UHGV virus genome: UHGV-0219829
Reading direction: 5' to 3' (one strand)
DNA: 26,053 nt
DNA from: a virus
The notes under the pieces are model-generated. The model was given only the letters and a program-made list of their open reading frames with translations, made no database searches and was not told the DNA's origin. A program made the translations under genes and the position numbers. This document shows positions 1-19,855 of this stretch, piece after piece; position 1 is the first letter of the stretch; the number at the start of each line of letters is the position of its first letter.

Positions 1-40
1 TAAACCCTGTTTTCCTTGCCATAGACACCATCCCTGTCTT

Positions 41-67: not shown

Positions 68-152
68 ATCAATTACTTACATGCAATCAAAAGTAAAAAC
101 AAGTACTTATCGAAAGCTGTAAGGGTTTGGAGCGGTTTCAAAATTTCTTGAG

Positions 153-173
153 TGTGGACACTATGTGGACACT
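153..173. repeat. Tandem direct repeat TGTGGACACT-a-TGTGGACACT next to the int 3' end; candidate integrase arm-type binding sites of attL
   Basis: Seen directly: 10-bp unit at 153-162 and 164-173. It lies 14 bp from the int stop. The match to P2-type arm sites (TGTGGACA-like) is from memory and not verified. Confidence 0.5.
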
Positions 174-186
174 CAGAGGGGGAAAT

Positions 187-1197
187 TTATAACGTCACTC
201 CGCCTTTTAGTGGATTCAGAGCGACGGCATTTTGCAGATAGTCAGGCGCAAGGTGCGCATAGGCCATCGTCTGCTGAATGCTCGCATGTCCCAGAATCTG
301 TTGCAGTGCGATTATATTGCCCCCATTCATCATGAAATGGCTTGCGAATGTATGCCGCAGGATGTGGGTTGCCTGATTGGGTGGTATATCAGGTTTCACT
401 CTGCGTAAAATCCCGCAAAATTTCTCATAATCAACTTTGAATAATTTGGCGCTGGCCTCCTCTTTAACTTTTTTCTCCAGTTCCTCAGAAATCGGCACGG
501 TTCGCTTTTTACCGTTTTTGGTTTTCAGGAAGGTAACCCTGCAATTTGTAATCTGTGCTGGTTTTAGCGTGGCAACTTCCGTCCATCTTCCTCCAGTGCT
601 CAGACATAAAAGCGCGACAAGTAAGTCATCACCAGCCAAAACATTTAACAGTTTTTCGATTTCTGCTTTTTCCAGGAACGTCATTTCAGGGTTGGCCTCC
701 GCCAGTGGCGGCAGTCCGTGAATTGGGTGTTGCCCGGAAAATTCATCCAATTGAATTAATTTTGTGAACATGCCGGATAATCGGTACATGTCACGGTTTA
801 TCGTTGCGGCACTGATACCATCACGTAGTCGCATGGAACGATAATCCATCAAAGCCCTTTTGCTCATCCTGCTCACTGGTATATCACCTATGCCGCTGAT
901 GGTTTTGAGTAGATGATTAAACTCTTTTGTTCCATGCTCGTGGTTTTGCCCGTGATATTTCCACCAGATGTCCAGCAACTCACTCAAAGTCCGGCGGTCT
1001 GCTCGCTGGCCTCCCCATTCTTTCTGACTGGCATTGGCGATTGTGTATCGCTCAAATGCTAGTGCTTCAGCTTTTCTTTCGAATTTCCTGCGGATGCGTT
1101 TTCCGTCGCGACCGCGAGGTCTAATGTCCACTTCATAGCGACCATCATCGAGCTTCTTAATTGCCATAAGAAAGCCCTCCGGCGCTGTATTCACCAT
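187..1197 (-). CDS. int: Tyrosine site-specific integrase (P2 Int-like)
   Basis: 336-aa ORF at the prophage edge, adjacent to and co-oriented with the repressor. C-terminal region contains HxLRHT, matching the conserved tyrosine-recombinase box (ATHILRHTFASHFMMNGGNIIALQQILGHASIQQTMAYAHL). An alternative ATG at 1167 (MAIKKL...) has a GGAGG Shine-Dalgarno, so the true start may be 1167. Confidence 0.9.
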   Translation of the reverse strand: MVNTAPEGFLMAIKKLDDGRYEVDIRPRGRDGKRIRRKFERKAEALAFERYTIANASQKEWGGQRADRRTLSELLDIWWKYHGQNHEHGTKEFNHLLKTISGIGDIPVSRMSKRALMDYRSMRLRDGISAATINRDMYRLSGMFTKLIQLDEFSGQHPIHGLPPLAEANPEMTFLEKAEIEKLLNVLAGDDLLVALLCLSTGGRWTEVATLKPAQITNCRVTFLKTKNGKKRTVPISEELEKKVKEEASAKLFKVDYEKFCGILRRVKPDIPPNQATHILRHTFASHFMMNGGNIIALQQILGHASIQQTMAYAHLAPDYLQNAVALNPLKGGVTL

Positions 1198-1236
1198 CTT
1201 GGTAGCAAATGGTGAAAATGTAATCTTTATATAGAG

Positions 1237-1530
1237 TTAGCCAATCCTTTTCGCGGAGTGGTTGGACTCTGTTGACTCTGGCCCAATGTGCGCGAGAGCC
1301 GGTGCGATTTGTCCTGCGTCCGGCGCGGTTTTATCTGTCATAAGCCATAGAGCATATTTTTGGAATGTGGGATGCATAGTGATTTTTAGCAAAGCTGTGC
1401 CACCGGGTTCAAAGTTTCCTCCTTCATATTTTTTAAGTGTGCTTAGCGGTAACTCTATGATTTCACAGAATTTTGATTGGCTTAGCCCTTCAGCCTCACG
1501 CAAGGCCTTAATCTTTTCGCTTAATTTCAT
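1237..1530 (-). CDS. C: Immunity repressor (P2 C-like, HTH)
   Basis: 97-aa ORF with ATG start, divergent from the early operon. The N-terminus looks like a helix-turn-helix and the C-terminal part (GQIAPALAH...) resembles P2 C as I recall it. Position is between int and cox. Confidence 0.85.
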   Translation of the reverse strand: MKLSEKIKALREAEGLSQSKFCEIIELPLSTLKKYEGGNFEPGGTALLKITMHPTFQKYALWLMTDKTAPDAGQIAPALAHIGPESTESNHSAKRIG

Positions 1531-1651
1531 TTGACATGGTGCCTATATAGGGACTAAATTCCCTCAAAACTGGAACCTATATAGGTTCCATTGATTTGAG
1601 AATAAACCAGCGTCTAAACGGTTTTGAGTGGTTTAGAAAGGGCTGGATCCT
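1531..1651. promoter_or_regulatory. Lysis/lysogeny switch region with face-to-face early (Pe) and repressor (Pc) promoters; contains two identical palindromic 10-bp elements CCTATATAGG (1542-1551 and 1576-1585) and a TTGACA box (1531-1536)
   Basis: Seen directly: two perfect copies of the self-complementary CCTATATAGG, 34 bp apart, between divergent C and cox. The operator role is inferred from position. Confidence 0.6.
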
Positions 1652-1666
1652 ATGAGGGTACCATAT

Positions 1667-1939
1667 ATGGACGCTGAAAATTATGTGATTCAGTATCCGC
1701 TTGATGCGGTTCATGTGGATAAATTTGCTGATTTATTAGGGAAGCCAAAGACAGCCGTCAGTGAAATGGTGAAGGCAAATAAATTACCAATTATTGAATT
1801 GCGTGATCCTTGCAAACCGAAGGCTCGTGCCGGTGAAAAATGGGTTTTCATTCCTGAGTTTAATCGCGCTGTACGTGAGGCGTTTTATAACCGACCGGTT
1901 GAACAGCGTGATGCATGGCTTTTGTGGATGGGGTTGTGA
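1667..1939 (+). CDS. cox: Cox-like excisionase/transcriptional regulator
   Basis: First gene of the rightward early operon opposite C. GAGGG Shine-Dalgarno lies 7 nt upstream of the ATG at 1667; the longest ORF starts at ATG 1652. Size is about 90 aa, as for P2 Cox. Confidence 0.7.
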   Translation: MDAENYVIQYPLDAVHVDKFADLLGKPKTAVSEMVKANKLPIIELRDPCKPKARAGEKWVFIPEFNRAVREAFYNRPVEQRDAWLLWMGL

Positions 1940-1941
1940 TT

Positions 1942-2112
1942 ATGAATGAGCCGCGTTGTATTGCTCAGTTATTACGTAACGAAAGCCCCAGGGCGATTGA
2001 CTTCACCATCACCCACGGGAAGGGTCGCAAAGGAATCATTATCCGCACTAAAAAACAGAGTCCGTTAAAGAAGGCTCTGACCTTTCTGAAAAGCCGGAGG
2101 GTCTGGAAATGA
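1942..2112 (+). CDS. Small basic hypothetical protein (early operon, between cox and B)
   Basis: ORF in the early operon with an ATG at 1942 just after the cox stop; lysine/arginine rich. No recognisable motif. Confidence 0.45.
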   Translation: MNEPRCIAQLLRNESPRAIDFTITHGKGRKGIIIRTKKQSPLKKALTFLKSRRVWK

Positions 2113-2609
2113 CAGTGATGACGCTCAATCTCGTTGAAAAACAGCCAGCAGCTATGCGCCGGATAATTGGCAAGCATCTTGCCGTCCCTCGCTGGCAGGA
2201 TACATGTGATTATTATAATCAGATGATGGAGCGCGAACGGCTAACGGTTTGCTTCCATGCGCAGTTAAAACAGCGTCACGCAACGATGCGTTTTGAAGAA
2301 ATGAATGATGTCGAACGTGAACGACTGGTATGTGCAATTGATGAATTGCGTGGGGCATTCTCAAAACGCCGTCAGGTTGGCGCAAGTGAGTATGCATATA
2401 TTAGTTTTTTAACAGTCAGTCAGCGTCGTACTTTATTTATGCATGCCGGATTGACTGAAAAAGAATTCAACCAGCCATACTGGCGAATTAATGAAGAATC
2501 ATGTTACTGGCGTGATGCTTTATTCCGTGCATTACGTGAATTATTCAGCCTGTTTGAGTATGCACCGACAATTCTGACGTCGGTAAAACCAGAGCAATAT
2601 CTGCATTAA
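2109..2609 (+). CDS. B: Replication protein B-like (helicase loader-type early protein)
   Basis: 166-aa ORF with GGAGGG Shine-Dalgarno and ATG overlapping the upstream stop. Same size and position as P2 gpB. Confidence 0.75.
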   Translation: MTVMTLNLVEKQPAAMRRIIGKHLAVPRWQDTCDYYNQMMERERLTVCFHAQLKQRHATMRFEEMNDVERERLVCAIDELRGAFSKRRQVGASEYAYISFLTVSQRRTLFMHAGLTEKEFNQPYWRINEESCYWRDALFRALRELFSLFEYAPTILTSVKPEQYLH

Positions 2610-2630
2610 GTAATTAACCAGAGTTTTTAA

Positions 2631-2658
2631 CGCACTTAATCGTGCGGGGCTTCTTTTT
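2631..2658 (+). terminator. Weak hairpin (CGCAC-ttaatc-GTGCG) followed by a T-rich tract; possible attenuator/terminator between B and downstream early ORFs
   Basis: Seen directly: 5-bp stem followed by GGGCTTCTTTTT. The stem is short, so this is weak. Confidence 0.3.
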
Positions 2659-2672
2659 GCCTGGAGAAAGTC

Positions 2673-2897
2673 ATGCATACAGTTTCTGAAAATCAGTGCG
2701 GTATATACGCATTACTGCTGCAACAGGCCAGAACCGAAGCACAGGCCGACGCTGCGACGCGCTTTTCTTCTCATCTTGACGCCATGATTCGCCACATCAC
2801 AAAGGCGGAGTTATCCCGCGTGGAGATAGTCGAGCTGCTCAGTCAGGAGTCGGAAAAATTTCACAATATCGGATTGTCTCGCGGGGAGGTGCTTTGA
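2673..2897 (+). CDS. Hypothetical early protein (P2 orf80-position)
   Basis: 74-aa ORF with ATG and GGAGA Shine-Dalgarno, in the early operon. Confidence 0.6.
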
Positions 2898-3199
2898 TGT
2901 CCTGTTCTCGTTCAGTTGTATTACTGAATAACGCCTTAAAAATCGCCGTTATGAAAAATGGCGATTTATCTCTTATTCAACTTGGTCTTGATAAAGAAAA
3001 ACGCGAAATAACTGAGTCTGTTATCGCGATTTATCAGAACGAATTAAATCTCCTGTCTGATGTGGTCAATTTACTTGTTAAACGCGCTGTATTTCACAAG
3101 CAAATCTCCTCCGTGGATGAACTGACGAAATTAACGACAGAAATTGCCAGCTATTGCGCTGATGAATTTAAAAAACTTAACGACAAAAGGAGCTGGTAA
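2897..3199 (+). CDS. Hypothetical early protein (P2 orf81-position)
   Basis: ATG at 2897 overlaps the upstream TGA (ATGA); the track start at 2894 is a TTG. About 100 aa. Confidence 0.6.
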   Translation: MSCSRSVVLLNNALKIAVMKNGDLSLIQLGLDKEKREITESVIAIYQNELNLLSDVVNLLVKRAVFHKQISSVDELTKLTTEIASYCADEFKKLNDKRSW

Positions 3200-3423
3200 T
3201 GCCGGACAACGTAGATTTTATTCAGGAACAACAGGCTGAATTACTGGAGCGCCAGATTAACTCGGCAAGGGTAAAGCATTGCGGTGTTTCTGCGCTGGTT
3301 TGCGAAGAGTGTGACGCGCCAATACCTGCTGCCCGTCGTGCGGCTTATCCGTCAGCCACGCGTTGTGTTTCCTGCCAGTCAGTCTTTGAAGCAAAAAACA
3401 AACATTACCGGAGAACGGCATGA
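3199..3423 (+). CDS. TraR/DksA-family C4 zinc-finger protein (P2 orf82-position)
   Basis: 74-aa ORF containing CEEC...(17 aa)...CVSC, a four-cysteine CxxC-N17-CxxC arrangement. ATG overlaps the upstream stop. Confidence 0.7.
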   Translation: MPDNVDFIQEQQAELLERQINSARVKHCGVSALVCEECDAPIPAARRAAYPSATRCVSCQSVFEAKNKHYRRTA

Positions 3424-3695
3424 GTATTCGTATTGAAATTGGCGAACGTTATGTCGTTACCAGTGACAGCTTTCAGTTTATTCTCCACGAGAAAAAGAGA
3501 GCTGAAAGCGGTAAAAACGCCGGTCAGGAATGGCTGGCGGTGGTTGGTTATTACCCGAAATTAAGCCAGCTTGTTTCCGGCCTGATGCATCACGATATTC
3601 TGACCGGAAGCGCAAAGTCTTTTGCTGATTTAAACGCGCAGGTTGAGCAACTCAGCAAGCGTTGTTCAGAGGCTTTTGGCTCATATGGCCGTTAA
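3420..3695 (+). CDS. Hypothetical early protein (P2 orf83-position)
   Basis: 91-aa ORF with ATG overlapping the upstream stop, immediately before gene A. Confidence 0.6.
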   Translation: MSIRIEIGERYVVTSDSFQFILHEKKRAESGKNAGQEWLAVVGYYPKLSQLVSGLMHHDILTGSAKSFADLNAQVEQLSKRCSEAFGSYGR

Positions 3696-5961
3696 AGCCT
3701 CCGGGCGTTTTGTCCCTCCGTCAGCATTTGCCGCAGGCACCGGTGAGACGTTTACCGGTGCTTATGCATGGAACGCGCCACGCGAGGCCGTCGGGCGCGA
3801 AAGACCCCTTACACGTGACGAGATGCGTCAGGTGCAAGGTGTTTTATCCACGATTAATCGCCTGCCTTACTTTTTGCGCTCGCTGTTTACTTCACGCTAT
3901 GACTACATCCGGCGCAATAAAAGCCCGGTGCACGGGTTTTATTTCCTCACATCCACTTTTCAGCGCCGTTTATGGCCGCGTATTGAGCGCGTGAATCAGC
4001 GCCATGAAATGAACACCGACGCGTCGTTGCTGTTTCTGGCAGAGCGTGACCATTATGCGCGTCTGCCGGGGATGAATGACAAGGAGCTGAAAAAGTTTGC
4101 CGCCCGTATCTCATCGCAGCTTTTCATGATGTATGAGGAACTCTGCGATGCATGGGTTGATGCACATGGCGAGAAAGAATCGCTGTTTACAGATGAGGCG
4201 CAGGCGCATCTGTATGGTCATGTTGCTGGCGCTGCACGTGCTTTCAATATTTCCCCTCTCTACTGGAAAAAATACCGTAAAGGACAGATGACCACGAGGC
4301 AGGCATATTCTGCCATTGCCCGTCTGTTTAACGATGAGTGGTGGACTCATCAGCTTAAAGGCCAGCGTATGCGCTGGCATGAGGCGTTACTGATTGCTGT
4401 CGGGGAGGTCAATAAAGACCGTTCTCCTTATGCCAGTAAACATGCCATTCGTGATGTGCGTGCACGCCGCCAGGCAAATCTGGAATTTCTTAAATCGTGT
4501 GACCTCGAAAACAGGGAAACCGGCGAGCGCATCGACCTTATCAGTAAGGTGATGGGCAGTATTTCTAATCCTGAAATTCGCCGGATGGAGCTGATGAACA
4601 CCATCGCCGGTATTGAGCGTTACGCCGCCGCAGAGGGTGATGTGGGGATGTTTATCACTCTGACCGCGCCGTCAAAGTATCACCCGACACGTCAGGTCGG
4701 AAAAGGCGAAAGTAAAACCGTCCAGCTAAATCACGGCTGGAATGATGAGGCATTTAATCCAAAGGATGCGCAGCGTTATCTCTGCCGCATCTGGAGCCTG
4801 ATGCGCACGGCATTCAAGGATAATGATTTACAGGTCTACGGTTTGCGAGTCGTCGAGCCACACCACGACGGAACGCCGCACTGGCATATGATGCTTTTTT
4901 GTAATCCACGCCAGCGTAACCAGATTATCGAAATCATGCGTCGCTATGCGCTCAAAGAGGATGGTGACGAAAGAGGAGCCGCGCGAAACCGTTTTCAGGC
5001 AAAACACCTTAACCGGGGCGGTGCTGCGGGATATATCGCGAAATACATCTCAAAAAACATCGATGGCTATGCACTGGATGGTCAGCTCGATAACGATACC
5101 GGCAGGCCGCTGAAAGACACTGCCGCGGCTGTTACCGCATGGGCGTCAACGTGGCGCATTCCGCAATTTAAAACGGTTGGCCTGCCGACAATGGGGGCTT
5201 ACCGTGAACTACGCAAATTGCCTCGCGGCGTCAGCATTGCTGATGAGTTTGACGAACGCGTCGAGGCTGCACGCGCTGCCGCAGACAGTGGTGATTTTGC
5301 GTTGTATATCAGCGCGCAGGGTGGGGCAAATGTTCCGCGCGATTGTCAGACTGTCAGGGTTGCCCGTAGTCCGTCGGATGAAGTTAACGAGTACGAGGAA
5401 GAAGTCGAGAGAGTGGTCGGCATTTACGCGCCGCATCTCGGCGCGCGTCATATTCATATCACCAGAACGACGGACTGGCGCATTGTTCCGAAAGTGCCGG
5501 TCGTTGAGCCTTTGACTTTAAAAAGCGGCATCGCCGCGCCTCGGAGTCCTGTCAATAACTGTGGAAAGCTCACCGGTGGTGATACTTCGTTACCAGCTCC
5601 CACACCTTCTGAGCACGCCGCAGCAGTGCTTAATCTGGTTGATGACGGTGTCATCGAATGGAATGACCCGGAGGTCGTGAGGGCGCTCAGAGGTGCATTA
5701 AAACATGGCCTGAGAACACCAAATCGCCAGCAAAGAAACGGAAGCCCGTTAAAACCGCATGAAATGGCACCATCGGCCAGACTGACCCGGTCGGAACGAA
5801 TGCAAATTACCCGTATCCGCGTTGACCTTGCTCAGAACGGTATCAGGCCGCAGCGATGGGAGCTTGAGGCGCTGGCGCGTGGGGCAACCGTAAATTATGA
5901 CGGGAAAAAATTCACGTATCCGGTCGCTAATGAGTGGTCGGTTTTTTCAATTAAACAATAA
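3685..5961 (+). CDS. A: Rolling-circle replication initiator protein A (HUH endonuclease)
   Basis: About 758 aa from ATG 3685 (the track start at 3643 is TTG). Contains an HUH motif (TPHWHMMLF) and a downstream paired-tyrosine motif (GYIAKYISK), both seen directly. Position and size match P2 gpA. Confidence 0.9.
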   Translation: MAVKASGRFVPPSAFAAGTGETFTGAYAWNAPREAVGRERPLTRDEMRQVQGVLSTINRLPYFLRSLFTSRYDYIRRNKSPVHGFYFLTSTFQRRLWPRIERVNQRHEMNTDASLLFLAERDHYARLPGMNDKELKKFAARISSQLFMMYEELCDAWVDAHGEKESLFTDEAQAHLYGHVAGAARAFNISPLYWKKYRKGQMTTRQAYSAIARLFNDEWWTHQLKGQRMRWHEALLIAVGEVNKDRSPYASKHAIRDVRARRQANLEFLKSCDLENRETGERIDLISKVMGSISNPEIRRMELMNTIAGIERYAAAEGDVGMFITLTAPSKYHPTRQVGKGESKTVQLNHGWNDEAFNPKDAQRYLCRIWSLMRTAFKDNDLQVYGLRVVEPHHDGTPHWHMMLFCNPRQRNQIIEIMRRYALKEDGDERGAARNRFQAKHLNRGGAAGYIAKYISKNIDGYALDGQLDNDTGRPLKDTAAAVTAWASTWRIPQFKTVGLPTMGAYRELRKLPRGVSIADEFDERVEAARAAADSGDFALYISAQGGANVPRDCQTVRVARSPSDEVNEYEEEVERVVGIYAPHLGARHIHITRTTDWRIVPKVPVVEPLTLKSGIAAPRSPVNNCGKLTGGDTSLPAPTPSEHAAAVLNLVDDGVIEWNDPEVVRALRGALKHGLRTPNRQQRNGSPLKPHEMAPSARLTRSERMQITRIRVDLAQNGIRPQRWELEALARGATVNYDGKKFTYPVANEWSVFSIKQ

Positions 5962-6132
5962 TGACTACTACTGCAGTGTTGTGGGAATGTTATAGTGTTT
6001 GTGGGATTTTTCTATGAAAAACAATGAATTAATCTGTTTTTCATATTGAGCTAATTTTTTATGGCCACAGTTGTTAAAAAGTGAGAACATAATCTTGTTC
6101 AAAACCTGCTTCTATATACGGAGGCTTTCGCT

Positions 6133-6159
6133 ATAATACGCGGTCGGTTTTAGGAGGGG
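6133..6159 (+). promoter_or_regulatory. Putative promoter -10 (TATAAT at 6133-6138) and strong Shine-Dalgarno (AGGAGGGG at 6152-6159) for the methyltransferase gene
   Basis: Seen directly in the AT-rich spacer after gene A. The -35 element is weak, so promoter strength is uncertain. Confidence 0.45.
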
Positions 6160-6162
6160 ATA

Positions 6163-7107
6163 ATGCCAACAGTAGTTTCACTTTTTTCTGGATGCGGTGG
6201 TTCCGATGCGGGGGTTTTGAGAGCCGGCTTTGATGTGCTTATGGCCAACGATATCTTGCCGTATGCGCGCGATGTTTATATTGCCAATCATCCAGAAACT
6301 GATTACATATTAGGCAATATTGCTGATGTAACTACTTTTCCTAAATCTGATTTGCTGGTAGGTTGTTATCCATGTCAGGGATTCAGCCAGGGTGGTGCGC
6401 GTAAAGCCGATCGAAAAATTAATACTCTTTATTTAGAGTTTGCTAGAGCTTTAAACAATATAAAGCCTAAAGCTTTTATAGTAGAAAACGTGTCTGGTAT
6501 GGTTAGAAAAAATTTTGAGCATTTGTTATCTGACCAGATCAGGGTTTTTACTGAAGCAGGTTATACTGTTTCCGCAAAAGTTTTAAATGCGGCTGAATAT
6601 GGAGTAGCGCAGGAAAGAAAAAGAATATTTATCGTAGGAATCCGTAATGATTTCAAAGTTAAGTACGAGTTCCCTCAGCCAACTCATGGGCCAGCAACTG
6701 GCGTCAACTATGTTACTATTAAAGATGCTATAGGGCATTTACCTGAATGGCCAGAAGGTGAATTTTATGATATGGGATTCCATTGGTATTATATGTCTCG
6801 CAATCGTCGCCAGGATTGGGATCAAATTTCAAAGACAATAGTTGCTAATGCAAGGCATATGCCGTTGCATCCTGTCAGTCCTCCGATGGAGAAAGTAAGA
6901 ACTGATGAATGGAGATTTGTTGAGGATCGGAGAGCTCGCAGATTCAGTTTTCGAGAGGCAGCACTATTACAAGGGTTTGAGGATCTAGTGTTTCCAGAAA
7001 CAAATGCTGCAAGTCTTGGCATGAAATACACGGTGGTTGGTAATGCAGTGCCTCCGCCGCTTTTTGAAGCTGTAACGAAGGCATTGCCAATAGAATTATG
7101 GGATTGA
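6163..7107 (+). CDS. DNA (cytosine-5)-methyltransferase (Dcm-type C5-MTase)
   Basis: 314-aa ORF carrying the full canonical C5-MTase motif set: motif I FSGCGG, motif IV PCQGFS (catalytic Cys), motif VI ENV, motif VIII QERKR, motif IX REAALLQGF, motif X GNAVPPPL. Confidence 0.9.
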   Translation: MPTVVSLFSGCGGSDAGVLRAGFDVLMANDILPYARDVYIANHPETDYILGNIADVTTFPKSDLLVGCYPCQGFSQGGARKADRKINTLYLEFARALNNIKPKAFIVENVSGMVRKNFEHLLSDQIRVFTEAGYTVSAKVLNAAEYGVAQERKRIFIVGIRNDFKVKYEFPQPTHGPATGVNYVTIKDAIGHLPEWPEGEFYDMGFHWYYMSRNRRQDWDQISKTIVANARHMPLHPVSPPMEKVRTDEWRFVEDRRARRFSFREAALLQGFEDLVFPETNAASLGMKYTVVGNAVPPPLFEAVTKALPIELWD

Positions 7108-7114
7108 TAAGCTA

Positions 7115-8104
7115 TTAAGGCTCTGGATTTAATGTATAAAGCTCTTCCTCAAATTCGCGAAACCAATCAGAGGTAGTTATCGCTTCCCATTGGTTTGCCT
7201 TATCAAGTAGATATATGATTCTCAACCTATCTAATAATAATACCCCAGCGGTTGCGTGTGTGCTTACCCATTCGCCATTTGCTTCCCGATAGAAAACAGG
7301 CGTGAACATTGTTGATGGATGCTGGAACGCAATTTGGAAATAGGTGGTCAGTTTTAACACGTTAGCCTCTAATGTTTTGCTTGGCCACCCTGTTTCTTGT
7401 GCGCCACATTGACCAAGAATTCCATAGTTGCTAGTTTGACCATCAGGAAATTCCACTGTAGCAATTAGGTCAAACCCGGCATCACCAGATGTGGGAGCTC
7501 TATTTATTTCCCTTGTGTTTAAACTACAAACTCCAAGATCTTTTCCTAAAGTTTGTAGAGCTGTCCGAAGATTTGTTCCATAATAATTTTGCCTATCATC
7601 GGAGTTAGCATCAAAAATTCTTACGGTGCCATGTGCAGGTAAGAGAGAAATCATTGCTACTTTACATACTCTGGCAAAGCTCTTTGCCCAACGTTGTGCT
7701 GCTCCTTTAATCGACTTAAAGGATCTAAGTCTAGAGCAGCAAAGAAGAAAAACATATATTCGTTGTTGTTGGTTTAGATTTTCTTTAATAATTATCTCAT
7801 CACCTGAAATTATAAATGGATATATTTTGCCAAGAGCACTTTCTCTATATTCGAGTTGTGTCCAAACATCTTCGAGTTGCTCTTCAAAACGATCATTTCT
7901 CTCAGCGTCTCCATTAATTTCTTCTTCAGAATTACATTCTTCATCAATTTCTTCAACGCTTGTTATGCCGAATTTTCTTACTGAATCTAAATCATTTTTA
8001 TGTAGTGAGTTACGTCCGGTATAATTAATTACCGTGAGTAACTCGGCTAAATCTGCAAACAAATGAGGAGAGTTGGGATGCATAACTCCTACTTCAAAAG
8101 TCAT
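7115..8104 (-). CDS. Hypothetical protein, partner of the ParB-like protein; function unknown (candidate defence effector)
   Basis: About 329-aa ORF. ATG starts at 8107/8104 lie just downstream of a GAGG, and the gene overlaps the upstream gene's stop, suggesting translational coupling. Its stop is 7 nt from the convergent MTase stop. Low GC. I recognised no confident motif. Confidence 0.65.
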   Translation of the reverse strand: MTFEVGVMHPNSPHLFADLAELLTVINYTGRNSLHKNDLDSVRKFGITSVEEIDEECNSEEEINGDAERNDRFEEQLEDVWTQLEYRESALGKIYPFIISGDEIIIKENLNQQQRIYVFLLCCSRLRSFKSIKGAAQRWAKSFARVCKVAMISLLPAHGTVRIFDANSDDRQNYYGTNLRTALQTLGKDLGVCSLNTREINRAPTSGDAGFDLIATVEFPDGQTSNYGILGQCGAQETGWPSKTLEANVLKLTTYFQIAFQHPSTMFTPVFYREANGEWVSTHATAGVLLLDRLRIIYLLDKANQWEAITTSDWFREFEEELYTLNPEP

Positions 8105-9215
8105 CATCACCTCTGCTATTTTTCTCTGCTATTTCAGAACCTATAAGCTTAATATGTTTATTGATTCTTCGTGCTACTTCATGGGCCTGTCTATCATACT
8201 CTACCGTGGCAACCATGCCTGCTGCATCTATCAAAGCTGCTTCAACTTGATAAAGTAACTGGAGAAAGTCCTTAGTAATATCAGATGTCAATTGATAGGC
8301 AACTGCGAGTGGAGCCCCCATTCGGAATTGCTCCAATGCCTTAGGGCTACTTACAACAGCAGCTAGTTCTCTTAAATTACGTGATTCTCCTACACGAGTT
8401 TTTTTATCCTCGCCTTTTTTATATAACCATTCAGTTAGTTCTTTTATTTCTTTGTTCTTTAAACTCTTAGAATTGATGATAGGATGACTTGGTATTGTGT
8501 CTCCATCGTCTTCGATTGAAACTCCGACAAACTGGCCTAACCGCTCATCAGCAAGTGCTGTTGATAATACTGAAAATTTAATCGTTTCTTCATCTAGCTT
8601 TTCAATACCATAAAAATCATTTTTTTTAATGATTTCATACACCGCTAAAGCGTCTAGGTTACGCTTGATATGATCCCTACGACTGCCAATAGCTCTGGCA
8701 ACCTCATAGTAGCGTAGCATTGGATCCAGATTTGCATTGGTATAATCAAAAAGCTGTTTAATATATCGAGCTTTTGATAAGGGTTCCCATTGTTTGACAC
8801 CAGTAATATGTCTGAAACCAAGGTACGGAAGAATCTCTTCTCTTGTTTGGCGCTCAATGACAGGAACACGATCGACCGTATGTTTTGCATTTGATGCAAT
8901 TTCTCGTAGTCGAGCACTTGGATTTTCACATAGTGTCGGATCGCGTAATAATTTGACCGCGGATAGGCGACGGTTTCCTTCAACTACAATGTACTTCCCC
9001 GGCGCTCCACTATCAGGAATGACAATCAATGGTTCTCCAGGGAAAAAACCATTTTCCGCAATAGCACTCATTAGGTCTTCGATAGATGTTGAGGTTGCTA
9101 TGTAGTTAATCATTCCCAATTGGTCACGAGACACGCCTTCAGGAAGTCTTGGGTTTTCTGTGTCAAGTTCCAAATCATCTAGCGGAACATAAAGTATTTC
9201 TGAATCAGCAATCAT
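8094..9215 (-). CDS. ParB/Srx-like N-terminal domain protein (ParB-like nuclease/NTP-binding fold) with probable HTH; candidate defence component
   Basis: About 373 aa from ATG 9215, which has a GGAG Shine-Dalgarno 6 nt upstream (the track start 9254 is TTG). ParB box-like motifs are seen directly: LDDLELDTENPR and IVVEGNRRLSAVK (GxRR arginine finger-like). Confidence 0.7.
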   Translation of the reverse strand: MIADSEILYVPLDDLELDTENPRLPEGVSRDQLGMINYIATSTSIEDLMSAIAENGFFPGEPLIVIPDSGAPGKYIVVEGNRRLSAVKLLRDPTLCENPSARLREIASNAKHTVDRVPVIERQTREEILPYLGFRHITGVKQWEPLSKARYIKQLFDYTNANLDPMLRYYEVARAIGSRRDHIKRNLDALAVYEIIKKNDFYGIEKLDEETIKFSVLSTALADERLGQFVGVSIEDDGDTIPSHPIINSKSLKNKEIKELTEWLYKKGEDKKTRVGESRNLRELAAVVSSPKALEQFRMGAPLAVAYQLTSDITKDFLQLLYQVEAALIDAAGMVATVEYDRQAHEVARRINKHIKLIGSEIAEKNSRGDDDF

Positions 9216-9441
9216 CTGGATCTCCGTTGAACATGTCCACGAGAAGGAGCACAAAGTTATTTCATAACATGCAATATACTCATTCTGTAGCCATAAATGA
9301 ATTATTCATGATGTAAGATTCGCGTTGATGTGCGTGAATTCGCAAGTAATTATACAGCAAGGTTTGATTGGGTATCGTCAGCACCAGTGCGGTTCCAACG
9401 TACTCATGCAACTGCATTAAAACCGCCCCATGAAGCGGGCG

Positions 9442-9460
9442 GGCGAGGCGGGGAAAGCAC
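9442..9460. other. cos: cos cohesive-end site (GGCGAGGCGGGGAAAGCAC) for terminase cleavage/packaging
   Basis: The 19-mer matches the P2 cohesive end as I recall it (from memory, not verified). It lies in the non-coding region just upstream of portal gene Q, where cos sits in P2. Confidence 0.6.
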
Positions 9461-9602
9461 TGCGCGCTGGCGGTGGTGCTGATTTTATTTTTTCAGCGTC
9501 TCAGCGCGTCGTAATGGCGTTTAGATTGTGCGCCGGGGCGTTGGTGTGTCTGCGGGCTGTTTTGTGCGGTGGTGAGTGTGTGAGGGCGTGATGACGGGGT
9601 GT

Positions 9603-9628
9603 AAAAAAGCCGCCCGCAGGCGGCGATG
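9603..9628 (-). terminator. Rho-independent terminator of the leftward P-Q late operon
   Basis: On the minus strand, 5 nt after the Q stop: GCCGCC-tgcg-GGCGGC hairpin followed by TTTTTT. Confidence 0.7.
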
Positions 9629-9629
9629 T

Positions 9630-10664
9630 TCAGCCGTTGTCAGTGTCCAGTGAGTAGTTTTTAAAGCGGATGACCTCCTGGCCGAGCCAGCCGTTTATCT
9701 CGCGGATCCTGTCCTGTAACGGGATAAGCTCATTGCGGACAAAGACCTTTGCCACTTTCTCAATATCACCCAGCGACCCGACGTTCTCCGGCTTGCCGCC
9801 CATCAACTGAAAAGGGATGCGGTGCGCGTCCAGCAGGTCTGCGGCGCTGGCTTTTTTGATATTAAAAAAATCGTCCTTCGTTGCCACTTCACTGAGCGGG
9901 ATAATTTTAATGCCGTCGGCTTTCCCCTGTGGGGCATAGAGAAACAGATTTTTAAAGTTGTTGCGGCCTTTCGACTTAACCATGTTTTCGCGAAGCATTT
10001 CGATATCGTTGCGATCCTGCACGGCATCAGTGACGTACATGATGTATCCGGCATGTGCTCCATTTTCGTAATACTTGCGGCGGAACAGCGTGGCCGACTC
10101 ATTCAGCCAGGCAGAGTTAAGGGCGCTGAGATATTCCGGCAGGCCGTACAGCTCCTGATTAATATCCGGCTCCAGCAGGTGAAACACGGAGCCGGGCGCG
10201 AAGGCTGTCGGCTCGTTGAAGGACGGCACCCACCAGTAAACATCCTCTTCCACACCACGGCGGGTATATTTTGCCGGTGAGGTTTCCAGTCTGATGACCT
10301 TACCGGTAGTGCTGTAACGCTTTTCCAGAAACGCATTACCGAACACCAGAAAATCCAGCACAAAGCGGCTGAAATCCTGCTGGGAAAGCCACGGATGCGG
10401 GATAAATGTCGAGGCCAGAATATTACGTTTGACGTAAATCGGTGAGCTGTGATGCACGGCAGCACGCAGGCTTTTTGCCAGACCGGTAAAGCTGACCGGT
10501 GGCTCATACCATCTGCCGTTACTGATGCACTCGACGTAATCCAGAATGTCACGGCGGTCGAGTACCGGCACCGGCTCGCCAAAGGTGAATGCTTCCATTT
10601 TCGGGGCGCTGGCGGTCATTTTTTTTGCCGCAGGTTGCGGTGTTTTCCCTTTTTTCTTGCTCAT
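9630..10664 (-). CDS. Q: Portal protein (gpQ)
   Basis: 344-aa ORF, the same size as P2 gpQ. Its ATG overlaps the P stop (ATGA). Lysine-rich N-terminus. Confidence 0.9.
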   Translation of the reverse strand: MSKKKGKTPQPAAKKMTASAPKMEAFTFGEPVPVLDRRDILDYVECISNGRWYEPPVSFTGLAKSLRAAVHHSSPIYVKRNILASTFIPHPWLSQQDFSRFVLDFLVFGNAFLEKRYSTTGKVIRLETSPAKYTRRGVEEDVYWWVPSFNEPTAFAPGSVFHLLEPDINQELYGLPEYLSALNSAWLNESATLFRRKYYENGAHAGYIMYVTDAVQDRNDIEMLRENMVKSKGRNNFKNLFLYAPQGKADGIKIIPLSEVATKDDFFNIKKASAADLLDAHRIPFQLMGGKPENVGSLGDIEKVAKVFVRNELIPLQDRIREINGWLGQEVIRFKNYSLDTDNG

Positions 10665-12436
10665 CAGTAAAACTCCAGAATGGTGGATGTCAGCGGGGTG
10701 CTGATACCGGCGGTGAGTGGCTCATTTAACAGGGCGTGCATGGTTGCCCAGGCGAGGTCGGCGTGGCTGGCTTCCTCGCTGCGGCTGGCCTCATAGGTGG
10801 CGCTGCGTCCGCTGCTGGTCATGGTCTTGCGGATAGCCATAAACGAGCTGGTGATGTCGGTGGCGCTGACGTCATATTCCAGACAGCCACGGCGGATAAC
10901 GTCTTTTGCCTTGAGCACCATTGCGGTTTTCATTTCCGGCGTGTAGCGGATATCGCGCGCGGCGGGATAGAACGAGCGCACGAGCTGGAACACGCCGACA
11001 CCGAGGCCGGTGGCATCAATCCCGATGTATTCAACGTTATATTTTTCGGTGAGTTTGCGGATGGATTCCGCCTGGGTGGCAAAGTCCATGCCTTTCCACT
11101 GGTGACGCTCAAGTATTCTGAATTTGCCACCGGCCACCACCGGCGGTGCCAGTACCACGCATCCGGCGCTGTCGCCACGGTGTGACGGGTCGTAACCAAT
11201 CCATACCGGGCGGGAGCCGAACGGATTGGCGGCAAAGGGTGCATAGTCTTCCCATTCTTCCAGCGTGTCGACCATGCAGCGTTGCAGCTCCTCGAACGGG
11301 AACACCGACGCCTTGTCGTCAACAAATTCACACATGAACAGGTTTTTAAAATCGTCGGCGCTGTTTTCGCGTTTGAGCTGCTCAATGTCGAACAGCGTGC
11401 AGCCACCTTTCAGGGCGTCCTCAATGGTGACAATCTGTCGCCACTGGCCGTCCGCACAGAGAAGCCCACCGGCAAGGGCGTTATGACTGACGTCGATTTC
11501 CACGCGTTCGGCGGCGCTGGCGCGTCCCCGGTTAAACAGTTCACCCGACCAGAACGGGTAGGCGTCGTGCGCCAGCGTGGACGGGGTGGAGAAATAGGTC
11601 GAGCGCAGGTGGCTCTGTGAGGCCATACCTGATGCCACCTTACGCAGTACCTGAAAATTCGGGATCCAGAAAATCTCGTCGACGTACAGGTCGCCGTTAT
11701 GGCTCTGTGCGGTGTTGGAGTTGGTGCCGAGAAAAATCAGTTTTGCGCCGTTATTGCCCAGGACAATCGGGTCACCGGTCAGGTCAACGTCAACCAGCCG
11801 GGCAAAGGCGATGATGTATTCGCGGAACACATACGCCTGCGTTTTACTGGCCGACAGAAAAATCTGGTTATGACCGGTTTTCAGGGCACGCAGCAGCGCC
11901 TCGCGGGAAAAATAAAACGTCGCGCCAATCTGGCGGGATTTCAGGATATCGCGGATGCGGTGCTCAAGCCCGGCGCGATACCAGTGCAACTGATAGTCGA
12001 AAGACTGCTCAAAGAAAATCTGCTCCAGCTTTTCGATGGCCTCGTCACTGAAAAAATTCTTTTTCGGTTTGCGACGCCCGCCTTTGTTGCGGTTAGCGAC
12101 GTTCGGATTAAGGTCTGCCTCGTTGCCGGTCTGACTGTAGCGGTTTACCCGTGCCAGTCGTTCAATCTGGCGTCCGAGCAGGTCAATTTCCTTGAAGTCA
12201 CCACCGGTTTTCTGCGGTTTGATGATGAGCTGGGTCAGCCGCGCTTCCAGACTCATTTCGACACGGCTGATGGGGGCAACGCTGTCCCAGCCGTCGCGCT
12301 GTTTCCAGCTCTGCACCGTCGGGCGTTTCATCTGCAACATGGCGGCAATCTGCGGCACGGAAAACCCCTGCCAGTACAGCAGCGCCGCCTGACGACGCGG
12401 GTCGTGTAAAAGAGTGGTGTCTGTGGTGATGGTCAT
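10664..12436 (-). CDS. P: Terminase large subunit (gpP)
   Basis: 590 aa from ATG 12436, which has a GAGG Shine-Dalgarno (the track start 12466 is TTG). Size equals P2 gpP; located upstream of the portal. Confidence 0.9.
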   Translation of the reverse strand: MTITTDTTLLHDPRRQAALLYWQGFSVPQIAAMLQMKRPTVQSWKQRDGWDSVAPISRVEMSLEARLTQLIIKPQKTGGDFKEIDLLGRQIERLARVNRYSQTGNEADLNPNVANRNKGGRRKPKKNFFSDEAIEKLEQIFFEQSFDYQLHWYRAGLEHRIRDILKSRQIGATFYFSREALLRALKTGHNQIFLSASKTQAYVFREYIIAFARLVDVDLTGDPIVLGNNGAKLIFLGTNSNTAQSHNGDLYVDEIFWIPNFQVLRKVASGMASQSHLRSTYFSTPSTLAHDAYPFWSGELFNRGRASAAERVEIDVSHNALAGGLLCADGQWRQIVTIEDALKGGCTLFDIEQLKRENSADDFKNLFMCEFVDDKASVFPFEELQRCMVDTLEEWEDYAPFAANPFGSRPVWIGYDPSHRGDSAGCVVLAPPVVAGGKFRILERHQWKGMDFATQAESIRKLTEKYNVEYIGIDATGLGVGVFQLVRSFYPAARDIRYTPEMKTAMVLKAKDVIRRGCLEYDVSATDITSSFMAIRKTMTSSGRSATYEASRSEEASHADLAWATMHALLNEPLTAGISTPLTSTILEFY

Positions 12437-12609
12437 GAATACCTCGCCGTGATGAATACACGGCAAGGCTACTGAGTCGCGCCCCGCGATTCGCTAAGGT
12501 GCTGTTGTGTCAGTGATAAGCCATCCGGGACTGATGGCGGAGGATGCGCATCGTCGGGAAACTGATGCCGACATGTGACTCCTCTAATCACTATTCAGGA
12601 CTCCTGACA
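12437..12609. promoter_or_regulatory. Divergent late promoter region (by analogy with P2 PP leftward and PO rightward, activator-dependent)
   Basis: Non-coding region between divergent P and O. I could not locate a perfect TGT-N12-ACA element, so exact promoter elements are unassigned. Confidence 0.4.
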
Positions 12610-13464
12610 ATGGCAAAAAAAGTCTCAAAATTCTTTCGTATCGGCGTTGAGGGTGACACCTGTGACGGGCGTGTCATCAGTGCGCAGGATATTCAGGAAA
12701 TGGCCGAAACCTTTGACCCGCGTGTCTATGGTTGCCGTATTAACCTGGAACATCTGCGCGGCATCCTGCCTGACGGTATTTTTAAACGTTATGGTGATGT
12801 GGCCGAACTGAAGGCCGAAAAGATTGACGATGATTCGGCGCTGAAAGGCAAATGGGCGCTGTTTGCGAAAATCACCCCGACCGATGACCTTATCGCGATG
12901 AACAAGGCCGCGCAGAAGGTCTACACCTCAATGGAAATTCAGCCGAACTTTGCCAACACCGGCAAATGTTATCTGGTGGGGCTGGCCGTCACCGATGACC
13001 CGGCAAGCCTCGGCACGGAATACCTGGAATTCTGCCGCACGGCAAAACACAACCCTCTGAACCGCTTCAAATTAAGCCCTGAAAACCTGATTTCAGTGGC
13101 AACGCCTGTTGAGCTGGAATTTGAAGACCTGCCTGAAACCGTGTTCACAGCCCTGACCGAAAAGGTGAAGTCCATTTTTGGCCGCAAACAGGCCAGCGAT
13201 GATGCCCGTCTGAATGACGTGCATGAAGCGGTGACCGCTGTTGCTGAACATGTGCAGGAAAAACTGAGCGCCACTGAGCAGCGCCTCGCTGAGATGGAAA
13301 CCGCCTTTTCCGCACTTAAGCAGGAGGTGACTGACAGGGCGGATGAAACCAGCCAGGCATTCACCCGCCTGAAAAACAGTCTCGACCACACCGAAAGTCT
13401 GACCCAGCAGCGCCGCAGCAAGGCCACCGGTGGTGGCGGTGACGCCCTGATGACGAACTGCTGA
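12610..13464 (+). CDS. O: Capsid scaffolding protein (gpO)
   Basis: 284 aa from ATG 12610 (MAKKVSKFF...). The track start at 12544 adds 22 residues with no Shine-Dalgarno. Size equals P2 gpO. Confidence 0.9.
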   Translation: MAKKVSKFFRIGVEGDTCDGRVISAQDIQEMAETFDPRVYGCRINLEHLRGILPDGIFKRYGDVAELKAEKIDDDSALKGKWALFAKITPTDDLIAMNKAAQKVYTSMEIQPNFANTGKCYLVGLAVTDDPASLGTEYLEFCRTAKHNPLNRFKLSPENLISVATPVELEFEDLPETVFTALTEKVKSIFGRKQASDDARLNDVHEAVTAVAEHVQEKLSATEQRLAEMETAFSALKQEVTDRADETSQAFTRLKNSLDHTESLTQQRRSKATGGGGDALMTNC

Positions 13465-13523
13465 CCGGCGTCAGTCAGTCCGGGAAAAACCTTCACGATT
13501 AACCCTTAATTTCAGGAAAAACT

Positions 13524-14597
13524 ATGCGCCAGGAAACCCGCTTTAAATTTAATGCCTACCTGTCCCGTGTTGCCGAACTGAACGGCATCGACGCCGGTGA
13601 TGTGTCGAAAAAATTCACCGTTGAACCGTCGGTCACCCAGACCCTGATGAACACCATGCAGGAGTCCTCTGACTTTCTGACCCGCATCAACATTGTGCCG
13701 GTCAGCGAAATGAAAGGGGAAAAAATTGGTATTGGTGTCACCGGCTCCATCGCCAGCACCACCGACACCGCCGGTGGCACCGAGCGTCAGCCGAAGGACT
13801 TCTCGAAGCTGGCGTCAAACAAGTACGAATGCGACCAGATTAACTTCGATTTTTATATCCGCTACAAAACGCTGGACCTGTGGGCGCGTTATCAGGATTT
13901 CCAGCTTCGTGTCCGTAACGCCATTATCAAACGCCAGTCCCTTGATTTAATCATGGCCGGTTTTAACGGCGTGAAGCGTGCCGAAACCTCTGACCGCAGC
14001 AGCAATCCGATGCTACAGGATGTGGCGGTCGGCTGGCTGCAGAAATACCGCAATGAAGCCCCGGCGCGCGTGATGAGCAAGGTCACTGACGAGGAAGGCC
14101 GCACCACCTCTGAGGTTATCCGCGTGGGTAAGGGCGGTGATTATGCCAGCCTTGATGCACTGGTGATGGATGCGACCAACAACCTGATTGAGCCGTGGTA
14201 TCAGGAAGACCCTGACCTTGTGGTGATTGTGGGACGTCAGCTACTGGCGGACAAGTATTTTCCCATCGTCAACAGGGAGCAGGACAACAGCGAAATGCTG
14301 GCCGCTGACGTCATCATCAGCCAGAAACGCATCGGTAACCTGCCGGCGGTACGCGTCCCGTACTTCCCGGCGGATGCGATGCTCATCACAAAGCTGGAAA
14401 ACCTGTCCATCTACTACATGGATGACAGCCATCGCCGCGTGATTGAGGAAAACCCGAAACTCGACCGCGTGGAGAACTACGAGTCAATGAACATTGATTA
14501 CGTGGTGGAAGACTACGCCGCCGGTTGTCTGGTGGAAAAAATTAAGGTCGGTGATTTCTCCACACTGGCTAAAGCGACCGCAGAGCCGGGAGCGTAA
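13524..14597 (+). CDS. N: Major capsid protein (gpN)
   Basis: 357-aa ORF, equal to P2 gpN; follows the scaffold gene. Confidence 0.9.
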   Translation: MRQETRFKFNAYLSRVAELNGIDAGDVSKKFTVEPSVTQTLMNTMQESSDFLTRINIVPVSEMKGEKIGIGVTGSIASTTDTAGGTERQPKDFSKLASNKYECDQINFDFYIRYKTLDLWARYQDFQLRVRNAIIKRQSLDLIMAGFNGVKRAETSDRSSNPMLQDVAVGWLQKYRNEAPARVMSKVTDEEGRTTSEVIRVGKGGDYASLDALVMDATNNLIEPWYQEDPDLVVIVGRQLLADKYFPIVNREQDNSEMLAADVIISQKRIGNLPAVRVPYFPADAMLITKLENLSIYYMDDSHRRVIEENPKLDRVENYESMNIDYVVEDYAAGCLVEKIKVGDFSTLAKATAEPGA

Positions 14598-14600
14598 CCG

Positions 14601-15344
14601 ATGACGAGTCCCGCACAGCGCCACATGATGCGGGTCTCGGCAGCGATGACCGCGCAGCGGGAAGCCGCCCCGCTGCGACATGCAACTGTCTATGAGCAGA
14701 TGCTGGTTAAGCTCGCCGCAGACCAGCGCACACTGAAAGCGATTTATTCAAAAGAGCTGAAGGCCGCGAAAAAACGCGAACTGCTGCCGTTCTGGTTGCC
14801 GTGGGTGAACGGCGTGCTGGAGCAGGGCAAAGGTGCACAGGATGACATTCTGATGACGGTCATGCTGTGGCGTCTGGATACCGGCGATATTGCCGGTGCG
14901 CTGGAGATTGCCCGTTATGCCCTGAAGTACGGTCTGACCATGCCGGGTAAACACCGCCGCACCCCGCCGTACATGTTCACCGAGGAGGTGGCGCTTGCGG
15001 CCATGCGCGCTCACGCTGCCGGTGAGTCTGTGGATCCCCGCCTGCTGACGGACACCCTTGCACTGACCGCCACGGCAGACATGCCTGATGAAGTGCGCGC
15101 AAAGCTGCACAAAATCACCGGTCTGTTTCTGCGTGACGCTGGTGATGCCGCCGGTGCGCTGGCTCACCTGCAACGCGCAACACAGCTCGACTGTCAGGCA
15201 GGCGTCAAAAAAGAGATTGAACGACTGGAGCGGGAGCTGAAACCGAAGCCGGAGCCGCAGCCCAAAGCGGCCACCCGCACTCCGCGTAAGACCCGGAGCG
15301 TGACACCGGCAAAACGTGGACGCCCGAAAAAGAAAGCCAGTTAA
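14601..15344 (+). CDS. M: Terminase small subunit (gpM)
   Basis: 247-aa ORF, equal to P2 gpM; basic KRGRPKKK C-terminal tail. Confidence 0.85.
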   Translation: MTSPAQRHMMRVSAAMTAQREAAPLRHATVYEQMLVKLAADQRTLKAIYSKELKAAKKRELLPFWLPWVNGVLEQGKGAQDDILMTVMLWRLDTGDIAGALEIARYALKYGLTMPGKHRRTPPYMFTEEVALAAMRAHAAGESVDPRLLTDTLALTATADMPDEVRAKLHKITGLFLRDAGDAAGALAHLQRATQLDCQAGVKKEIERLERELKPKPEPQPKAATRTPRKTRSVTPAKRGRPKKKAS

Positions 15345-15443
15345 CAACCGAATGCGCCCCGCGCCAGGGCGGCACGCCGGTCAGTGACGGTGAATCACCT
15401 GACACTGCACCGGCGTCCACCGCCCGACTTTTCAGAGGTAGTC

Positions 15444-15953
15444 ATGATGACGCTGATTATTCCGCGAAAGGAGGCTCCCGTGTCCGGTGAGGGTACGGTG
15501 GTTATCCCGCAACCGGCAGGCGACGAGCCGGTGATTAAAAACACGTTCTTTTTTCCCGATATTGACCCGAAGCGCGTCCGGGAACGTATGCGCCTTGAGC
15601 AGACCGTCGCCCCCGCCCGTCTGCGTGAGGCCATCAAGTCAGGCATGGCGGAGACGAATGCGGAGCTGTACGAGTACCGCGAACAGAAAATTGCCGCCGG
15701 TTTTACGCGTCTGGCGGACGTCCCGGCGGACGACATCGACGGTGAAAGCATCAGGGTTTTTTACTACGAGCGCGCCGTGTGTGCGATGGCGACCGCGTCG
15801 CTTTATGAGCGTTATCGCGGCGTGGATGCCAGTGCGAAAGGCGACAAGAAGGCCGACAGCATTGACAGCACCATTGATGAGCTGTGGCGGGATATGCGCT
15901 GGGCAGTGGCGCGTATCCAGGACAAGCCGCGCTGCATCGTGAGTCAAATCTGA
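15444..15953 (+). CDS. L: Head completion/stabilisation protein (gpL)
   Basis: 169 aa from ATG 15444 with a GAGGT Shine-Dalgarno (the track start 15384 is GTG). Size equals P2 gpL. Confidence 0.85.
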   Translation: MMTLIIPRKEAPVSGEGTVVIPQPAGDEPVIKNTFFFPDIDPKRVRERMRLEQTVAPARLREAIKSGMAETNAELYEYREQKIAAGFTRLADVPADDIDGESIRVFYYERAVCAMATASLYERYRGVDASAKGDKKADSIDSTIDELWRDMRWAVARIQDKPRCIVSQI

Positions 15954-16156
15954 TGAAGACCTTTGCGCTACAGGGCGACACGCTCGACGCCATTTGTGTC
16001 CGGTATTACGGGCGCACTGAGGGCGTGGTCGAGGCCGTGCTCGCCGCAAATCCGGGACTGGCTGAACTGGGGGCGGTGCTGCCACACGGCACCGCCGTCG
16101 AACTGCCCGACGTTCAGACCGCGCCCGTGGCTGAAACTGTCAATCTGTGGGAGTAA
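15953..16156 (+). CDS. X: Tail protein X (LysM-like small protein)
   Basis: 67 aa from ATG 15953, overlapping the L stop (TGATG). Size equals P2 gpX. Confidence 0.8.
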   Translation: MKTFALQGDTLDAICVRYYGRTEGVVEAVLAANPGLAELGAVLPHGTAVELPDVQTAPVAETVNLWE

Positions 16157-16159
16157 CGC

Positions 16160-16938: not shown

Positions 16939-16952
16939 ACGGAGTAAACACC

Positions 16953-19851: not shown

Positions 19852-19855
19852 AACC

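Follow-up and report, generated by a model that had tools for sequence, protein, structure and literature searches.

UHGV virus genome UHGV-0219829, the 26,053-nucleotide (nt) stretch of DNA analyzed here (hereafter the window), is a P2-like prophage whose cargo includes a ParB-like gene, a gene for a nuclease-like partner protein and a C5 cytosine DNA methyltransferase gene. The ParB-like and nuclease-like proteins are an obligate, co-inherited pair. We lean toward the interpretation that the ParB-like protein is the nucleotide- and DNA-binding subunit of a two-protein restriction-like module, which together with the C5 methylase would form a three-gene anti-phage cassette. The initial annotation of this region was essentially right about the ParB-like gene and incomplete in that it overlooked the cassette of which this gene is the first.

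The obligate pairing is concluded from the linkage of the two genes, their tight spacing and the correlated divergence of their products. A linkage scan using one genome per species added 80 further loci, which with the loci found earlier gave 83 non-redundant loci from Proteobacteria, Bacteroidota, Acidobacteriota, Chloroflexota, Actinomycetota, Firmicutes, and others. The nuclease-like gene was present in 80 of the 83, and the three exceptions stop at a contig edge within 440 bp. At every one of the 80 testable loci, the nuclease-like gene lies on the same strand and starts at most 17 nt downstream of the stop codon of the ParB-like gene (median overlap 14 nt); in the window, the ParB-like stop overlaps the start of the partner gene by 11 nt. 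Pairwise identities of the ParB-like proteins correlate with those of the nuclease-like proteins (Mantel r 0.94, reached by 0 of 999 permutations), with mean values of 38% and 29%, respectively. The nuclease-like family comprises approximately 1,200 clusters at 50% identity and is uniform in length, at roughly 300–350 amino acids (aa).

The ParB-like protein contains the two ParB box-like motifs noted in the initial annotation, LDDLELDTENPR at residues 13–24 and IVVEGNRRLSAVK at residues 75–87. Curated sequence models reach it only below threshold (13 of the 26.3 bits required for Pfam ParB_N, at E 0.11; 33 of the 58.45 bits required for NCBIfam parB_part, at E 4.8e-8), and therefore the assignment of a ParB fold rests on structure. 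An AlphaFold2 (AF2) model built on 34 homologues, with a mean predicted local distance difference test (pLDDT) score of 87.6, matches ParB/Srx-fold proteins, as had been proposed from the sequence, and the region after the N-terminal part, described earlier as helix-turn-helix (HTH)-like, matches the HTH domain of ParB. In a profile alignment, the GNRRL motif aligns with GERRL of Helicobacter pylori ParB box II, and the residues E79-G-N-R-R83 are 100% conserved among 79 homologues with identities down to ~30%, far beyond chance. The arginines of the ParB box II GxxRxxA motif and the N-terminal CTPase fold of ParB are both found in this protein. ParB box III (ENxQR), on the other hand, is replaced by an invariant GFRHITGxKxW in the ParB-like family. 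Among PADLOC models, the best match was PD-Lambda-5_A (E 6.2e-29), aligning residues 9–282 with profile positions 7–277 of 440, and all but one of the 25 models listed, out of 26 matched, were PD-Lambda-5_A.

The C-terminus of the ParB-like protein was also considered as a HEPN domain, a reading that was rejected because the histidine of the Rx4H-like “RRINKH” is asparagine in most homologues and no HEPN fold was found. The C-terminal tail is disordered in the AF2 model (pLDDT <50). Across loci L002–L088 and the window, it ends in DDDF with an invariant phenylalanine in the clade of the window protein and in EDEL in Bacteroidota, and the combination of an acidic tail and a terminal hydrophobic residue is reminiscent of the C-terminal docking peptide of the single-stranded DNA-binding protein SSB. 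That the tail serves as a docking peptide for the partner protein is speculation.

The partner protein is predicted to consist of an N-terminal winged-helix domain and a C-terminal PD-(D/E)xK (Mrr/MspJI-like) nuclease fold, the latter supported by two methods. MspJI ranked first in the Foldseek search (probability 0.97, E 0.016). In the family profile, the partner motif “GDxGxD...GQC” was aligned with “GDGGVD334...GQ355AK357” of MspJI, an alignment that is not significant alone and agrees with the fold matches; the invariant D...Q of the partner thereby falls on the catalytic D334 and Q355 of MspJI. Among 78 homologues with identities down to ~20%, D213 and Q233 never vary and K244 is retained in 99%; R294 and R296 are also invariant in the family. 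The canonical lysine position of the PD-(D/E)xK motif is occupied by glycine or alanine. The partner is probably an Mrr/MspJI-like PD-(D/E)xK nuclease with a displaced lysine. Neither the partner nor 41 diverse homologues belong to any Pfam, NCBIfam or PADLOC family, and a sequence search of the partner against solved structures returned no significant match. The winged helix gave a generic winged-helix match and a weak match to RNA polymerase delta; its identification as a HARE-HTH domain was tried and dropped, since none of the 41 diverse members had a Pfam HARE-HTH match, and the domain is kept as a winged helix.

The methylase looks functional, with all the Pfam hallmarks of a C5 enzyme, and matches Pfam PF00145 over its full length (5.5e-65, 220 bits) and also TIGR00675. 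Its closest solved structure is M.HaeIII (full length, E 1.4e-48), and it is ~35% identical to the HaeIII methylase in a sequence alignment; this figure is indicative only, the structure match being the independent evidence. The gene is preceded by a perfect TATAAT box at 6132–6137 and an AGGAGG ribosome-binding site, and it converges on the partner gene, from which it is separated by 7 nt. GGCC is mildly depleted in the phage backbone, at 0.66 of the expected count. The likeness to M.HaeIII and this mild depletion are insufficient to call the specificity of the methylase. As a separate observation, the backbone (1–5961 and 9331–26053) is strongly depleted in short palindromes relative to a maximal-order Markov expectation, with GATC found 10 times against 92 expected, GGWCC 2 against 29 and CCWGG 28 against 66, and with GCCGGC, GGCGCC, CAGCTG, and CGGCCG near zero; the low-GC island has no such depletion.

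The phage accessory slot in which the ParB-like gene had been placed is borne out by the surrounding sequence. The gene order of the window is integrase, C repressor, Cox, gpA, the low-GC island, cos, portal Q, terminase P, scaffold O, and capsid N. The island, in which GC content falls to 0.36–0.42 compared with 0.54–0.58 in the surrounding backbone, is bounded by the end of gpA (identified by PF05840) and by the conserved cos-proximal region upstream of Q, with P2 homology picking up again at approximately 9407. This tin/old hotspot between the replication endonuclease and portal genes is a documented site of defense cargo (PMC9519451). The coordinates of the features are listed in the table below; a longer reading of the ParB-like open reading frame (ORF) from a TTG start at 9254 is unlikely.

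Table. Genes and island of the window, regions of the ParB-like protein, and fusion genes in related loci.
Feature	Position	Strand	Description
ParB-like gene	9215..8094	minus	ORF, 373 aa; ATG start with GGAG upstream
Winged-helix and PD-(D/E)xK-fold partner gene	8104..7115	minus	ORF, 329 aa
C5 cytosine DNA methyltransferase gene	6163..7107	plus	314 aa; Pfam PF00145
Low-GC accessory island, P2 tin/old hotspot cargo	5962..9406	no strand	GC profile and flanking genes
ParB/Srx-fold predicted nucleoside triphosphate (NTP)-binding domain	residues ~1–120		box I LDxxNPRLP; box II/P-motif EGNRRL
ParB-type HTH	residues ~125–200		invariant YLGxRHITGxKxW...KARY
Helical middle domain with beta-hairpin	residues ~200–310
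Long C-terminal helical hairpin	residues 312–367
Acidic tail ending in Phe (DDDF)	8094–8108		C-terminus of the ParB-like protein
DndE-HerA/FtsK fusion	L043 4395–5981; L044 4409–5971; L090 8430–9971

An 18-nt direct repeat, TAATGAGTGGTCGGTTTT at 5928–5945 and TAATACGCGGTCGGTTTT at 6134–6151, flanks a 200-bp spacer that extends from the terminator hairpin of gpA to the start of the methylase gene, and the second copy sits between the TATAAT box and the AGGAGG ribosome-binding site. Recombination at the edge of the island may have left this repeat as a scar. Within the same spacer, the record of Yersinia phage HQ103 annotates a 40-aa hypothetical coding sequence (5968–6090 of the window, minus strand).

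The identical cassette occurs in 48 of 5,426 complete Escherichia coli genomes (~1%), where all 49 copies lie on chromosomes rather than plasmids, and HQ103 carries it at 99.9% identity in the same hotspot. Cassettes that are ~60% identical and keep all three genes and their arrangement were found in a Methylomonas chromosome, a Burkholderia prophage, a Pseudomonas integrative element, and, again at the hotspot, Escherichia phages vB_EcoM-12474. The Methylomonas cassette adjoins pnp and others adjoin integrases in integrative elements, with no terminase nearby. More divergent cassettes occupy the same hotspot in phage Wphi (gp98, gp96, and Mth) and Pseudomonas phage D14A. In Wphi (L092), Mth is close to the window methylase (76% identity, variable target-recognition region included), whereas gp98 and gp96 share only 34% and 25% identity with the ParB-like and nuclease-like proteins, respectively. 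This reflects either the use of one methylase type by two deeply diverged restriction pairs or an exchange of modules. The hotspot of the Yersinia diagnostic plague phage L-413C (L094, 207–1199) holds only a truncated ParB-like ORF (62% identity over residues 9–303), with neither the nuclease-like nor the methylase gene, and this ORF is probably a deletion remnant of the cassette.

The modification genes accompanying the pair vary among the scanned loci. A C5 methylase gene lies within 1.5 kb of the pair in 41 loci, of which 27 have it downstream and convergent, nine downstream on the same strand, and five upstream. Approximately 22 loci, mostly from Bacteroidota, have no methylase, and there the pair is directly downstream of dnd phosphorothioation genes, namely dndC (phosphoadenosine phosphosulfate reductase), dndD (an ATPase resembling structural maintenance of chromosomes proteins), dndE or a fusion of DndE with a HerA/FtsK ATPase, and often a dndA-type cysteine desulfurase. 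No locus has both a C5 methylase and a dnd module. A portable module of the restriction type that is matched to alternative self-marks would be expected to vary in this way. The fusion seen in Bacteroidota dnd clusters is a ~520-aa protein with an N-terminal DndE domain and a HerA/FtsK-type P-loop ATPase, encoded directly upstream of the ParB-like gene. Distant ParB-like homologues of ~490 aa adjoin adenine methylases in Vibrio phage ValB1MD-2 and Marinobacter phage AS1, which is the layout of the defense system PD-lambda-5.

The initial annotation had offered three roles for the protein, namely a nuclease, an NTP-dependent DNA-binding component of a defense module, or an anti-restriction factor. 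The second of these is favored by the PD-Lambda-5_A match, the pairing with a nuclease fold and the linkage to modification genes, whereas the presence of a dedicated PD-(D/E)xK partner makes the nuclease and anti-restriction options less likely. From this pairing and linkage, the ParB-like protein is most likely a sensor or regulatory subunit, and we infer that it binds a nucleotide and uses it as a switch on DNA. In the mechanism that we propose, the methylase would be the protective component that marks host and prophage DNA as self, and the partner would be the nuclease subunit. The ParB-like protein would bind DNA through its HTH domain, and NTP binding and hydrolysis at the EGNRR P-motif would act as a conformational switch, such as clamp-like closure or release. 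This switch may read the modification state of the DNA, as in the phosphorothioate sensing of SspE and DndI. On unmarked incoming DNA, the ParB-like protein would license or recruit the partner nuclease, and on marked DNA it would release or remain inactive. It is a more tentative possibility that the pair represents a new class of nucleotide-switch restriction enzyme, in which a ParB-type (possibly CTP-dependent) clamp would load onto DNA or scan it, check it for the mark of the host and license a PD-(D/E)xK nuclease of its own, and which has been coupled in evolution to the chemically unrelated self-marks 5-methylcytosine, phosphorothioate, and, in the fused PD-lambda-5 form, N6-methyladenine.

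Several points weigh against the restriction-like module. In approximately 10 complete loci, neither methylase nor dnd genes lie within 5–6 kb of the pair. A restriction enzyme that is always active should not persist in this state, which implies that either the pair has to be activated or its modification genes are located at a distance from it. Judged by sequence, the ParB-like protein may be a sensor, a loader, a transcriptional regulator or a cleaving enzyme. Moreover, the identity of the nucleotide and its hydrolysis are not predictable because box III ENxQR is replaced by GFRHITG, and for the same reason the chemistry of hydrolysis may not be the one used by canonical ParB. ParB-fold proteins bind CTP, ATP, or GTP, and the sequence and AlphaFold3 both fail to predict which (PMC12704722), so that the bound nucleotide cannot be named here either. 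Solitary pairs were seen in loci L010, L018, L025, L030, L052, L056, L059, and L074, and their flanks contain housekeeping or unrelated genes, a type I HsdS, an HNH_2 protein or an AspBHI-like type IV enzyme.

Alternatively, the ParB-like protein may stand outside the restriction machinery as a transcriptional regulator of the cassette, comparable to a restriction-modification controller, DndB, or KorB, that times the nuclease relative to the methylase upon entry into a new host. We consider this role unlikely, as the ParB-like gene stays with the nuclease gene whatever the modification module is, even where there is none, and its place in dnd loci is downstream of dndCDE(A), not upstream as would suit a regulator. 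The protein is also larger and more conserved than the nuclease (38% vs. 29%) and has an invariant predicted NTP-binding motif, and there are no repeated operator-like palindromes flanking the cassette genes.

The ParB/Srx domain could itself be the effector, as a nuclease or nickase or as an NTP-depleting enzyme, as reported for Osa and some plasmid ParB proteins, with the partner reduced to a catalytically dead DNA-binding subunit for specificity or sensing. The missing canonical lysine of the nuclease motif and the winged-helix domain of the partner are in keeping with such a division of labor, and nuclease and ATPase activities have been described for ParB/Srx proteins (Maindola, 2014, via PMC10853773 and PMC12839542). 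However, D213, Q233, and K244 of the partner are conserved at 99–100% down to ~20% identity, as in an active site, and the ParB-like protein retains the P-motif of switch-type ParB proteins, which makes this exchange of roles improbable.

A service to the phage itself, in which the methylase shields P2 DNA from host restriction during packaging and the ParB-like protein targets methylation or packaging, would suit the proximity of the cassette to cos and the portal and terminase genes, and modification of phage DNA at the packaging stage has been proposed for associations of ParB with methylases close to terminase genes (PMC4738411). This role is quite unlikely because the cassette also occurs outside phages and away from terminase genes, as beside Methylomonas pnp and in integrative elements; it also leaves the obligate nuclease-fold partner unexplained, and the position in P2 is a known hotspot for defense cargo. 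Finally, the ParB fold with its HTH and the database name “chromosome partitioning protein ParB” of some homologues speak for a canonical partition protein, a function that the initial annotation had already disfavored and that is excluded by context: parA is absent among the genes of the window, where the neighbors are the nuclease-like gene, the C5 methylase, gpA, and the portal gene, and from the related Methylomonas, Burkholderia, Pseudomonas, and Bacteroidota dnd loci; positions 5900–9650 contain no parS-like repeat array, with short repeats at chance level only; and the E. coli copies are all chromosomal, the Pfam and NCBIfam scores fall below their cut-offs, and the obligate partner is nuclease-like.

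ParB-fold nucleotide switches reach well beyond chromosome segregation, and their roles in phage defense are mostly unexplained, including the mechanism of PD-lambda-5. The locus described here is a compact, split version in which the putative sensor, cutter, and marker are three separate genes. Since ~1% of complete E. coli genomes carry it, as do the cultured P2-like phages HQ103, Wphi, and vB_EcoM-12474, the cassette is directly testable in E. coli. The position of the pair behind dndCDE(A) in Bacteroidota suggests that it could be one of the restriction partners missing from “orphan” phosphorothioation systems, and it raises the question of how one protein pair matches different DNA marks.

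A literature search found no description of the three-gene cassette or of an obligate ParB-like partner, and the cassette can be compared with several known systems. Type II restriction-modification systems of the HaeIII or NgoMIV type likewise have a C5 methylase converging on a gene with a restriction endonuclease (REase) fold in a compact mobile cassette. They differ in that the present cassette has an obligate third component with a predicted nucleotide-binding ParB fold (80 of 80 loci), a non-canonical nuclease motif, and a restriction pair that is also found with phosphorothioation genes or alone. The ParB/Spo0J/KorB clamps share the N-terminal fold, the box II arginines, and the adjacent HTH domain. 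In contrast, the window protein has no ParA or parS, a diverged box III, scores below the family cut-offs, different middle and C-terminal regions, and a nuclease-fold partner.

Proteins combining HARE-HTH and REase domains immediately downstream of dnd genes have been proposed by Aravind's group as the real restriction components (PMC10853773). The partner resembles them in its winged helix and REase fold, and its Bacteroidota homologues occupy the same position downstream of dnd genes and may belong to the same family; the passages of PMC10853773 concerned do not describe an obligate ParB-like partner.

In SspE and DndI, ParB-superfamily NTPase domains sense modification and control nuclease domains (PMC11662687). 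SspE, DndI, and GmrSD share with the present pair the combination of a ParB-superfamily NTPase module and a nuclease linked to DNA modification, and homologues of the pair are found in dnd clusters just as DndI and SspE adjoin dnd or ssp genes. The motif is EGNRR here rather than DGQ(Q/H)R, and the DNA-binding domain is a ParB-type HTH; their DUF1524 HNH domain is fused, whereas here a PD-(D/E)xK domain is on a separate polypeptide and there is no HNH domain. The predicted modification at the window locus, 5-methylcytosine, is a further difference. The relationship to DUF262/GmrSD raised in the initial annotation did not hold beyond the superfamily level, as DUF262 (PF03235) had no match to the ParB-like protein at E ≤ 1 and the motif differs. 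An identity of the dnd-linked homologues with SspFGH or DndI was likewise rejected, those being Walker A ATPase and FtsK-like proteins and a DUF262-HNH protein. DndB models (PF14072 and NCBIfam) did not match the window protein at E ≤ 1, and they did not match the Flavobacterium homologue in a dnd cluster at E ≤ 0.01.

PD-lambda-5 comes from a prophage of E. coli ECOR7, and experiments with many phages validated it as a defense system (Vassallo et al., 2022, PMC9519451). Its components are annotated as “ParB/HEPN, methyltransferase”, the authors interpret it as a compacted restriction-modification and abortive infection system, and its cloning required an mrr-deleted host (PMC9519451). The present ParB-like protein is shorter (373 aa vs. 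~440–500 aa) and without the C-terminal HEPN-like extension, and the methylase is a C5 enzyme (PF00145) in place of the MethyltransfD12 (Dam-like adenine) protein of PD-lambda-5 B. There are three genes instead of two, with the nuclease-like gene between the ParB-like and methylase genes, and the presumed effector is a separate protein matched by no PADLOC model. Both systems nevertheless share homologous N-terminal regions of ~270 residues, carriage on prophages, tight linkage to a DNA methyltransferase, and a logic resembling restriction-modification. On this homology, the cassette is predicted to be a distant, split-effector relative of PD-lambda-5.

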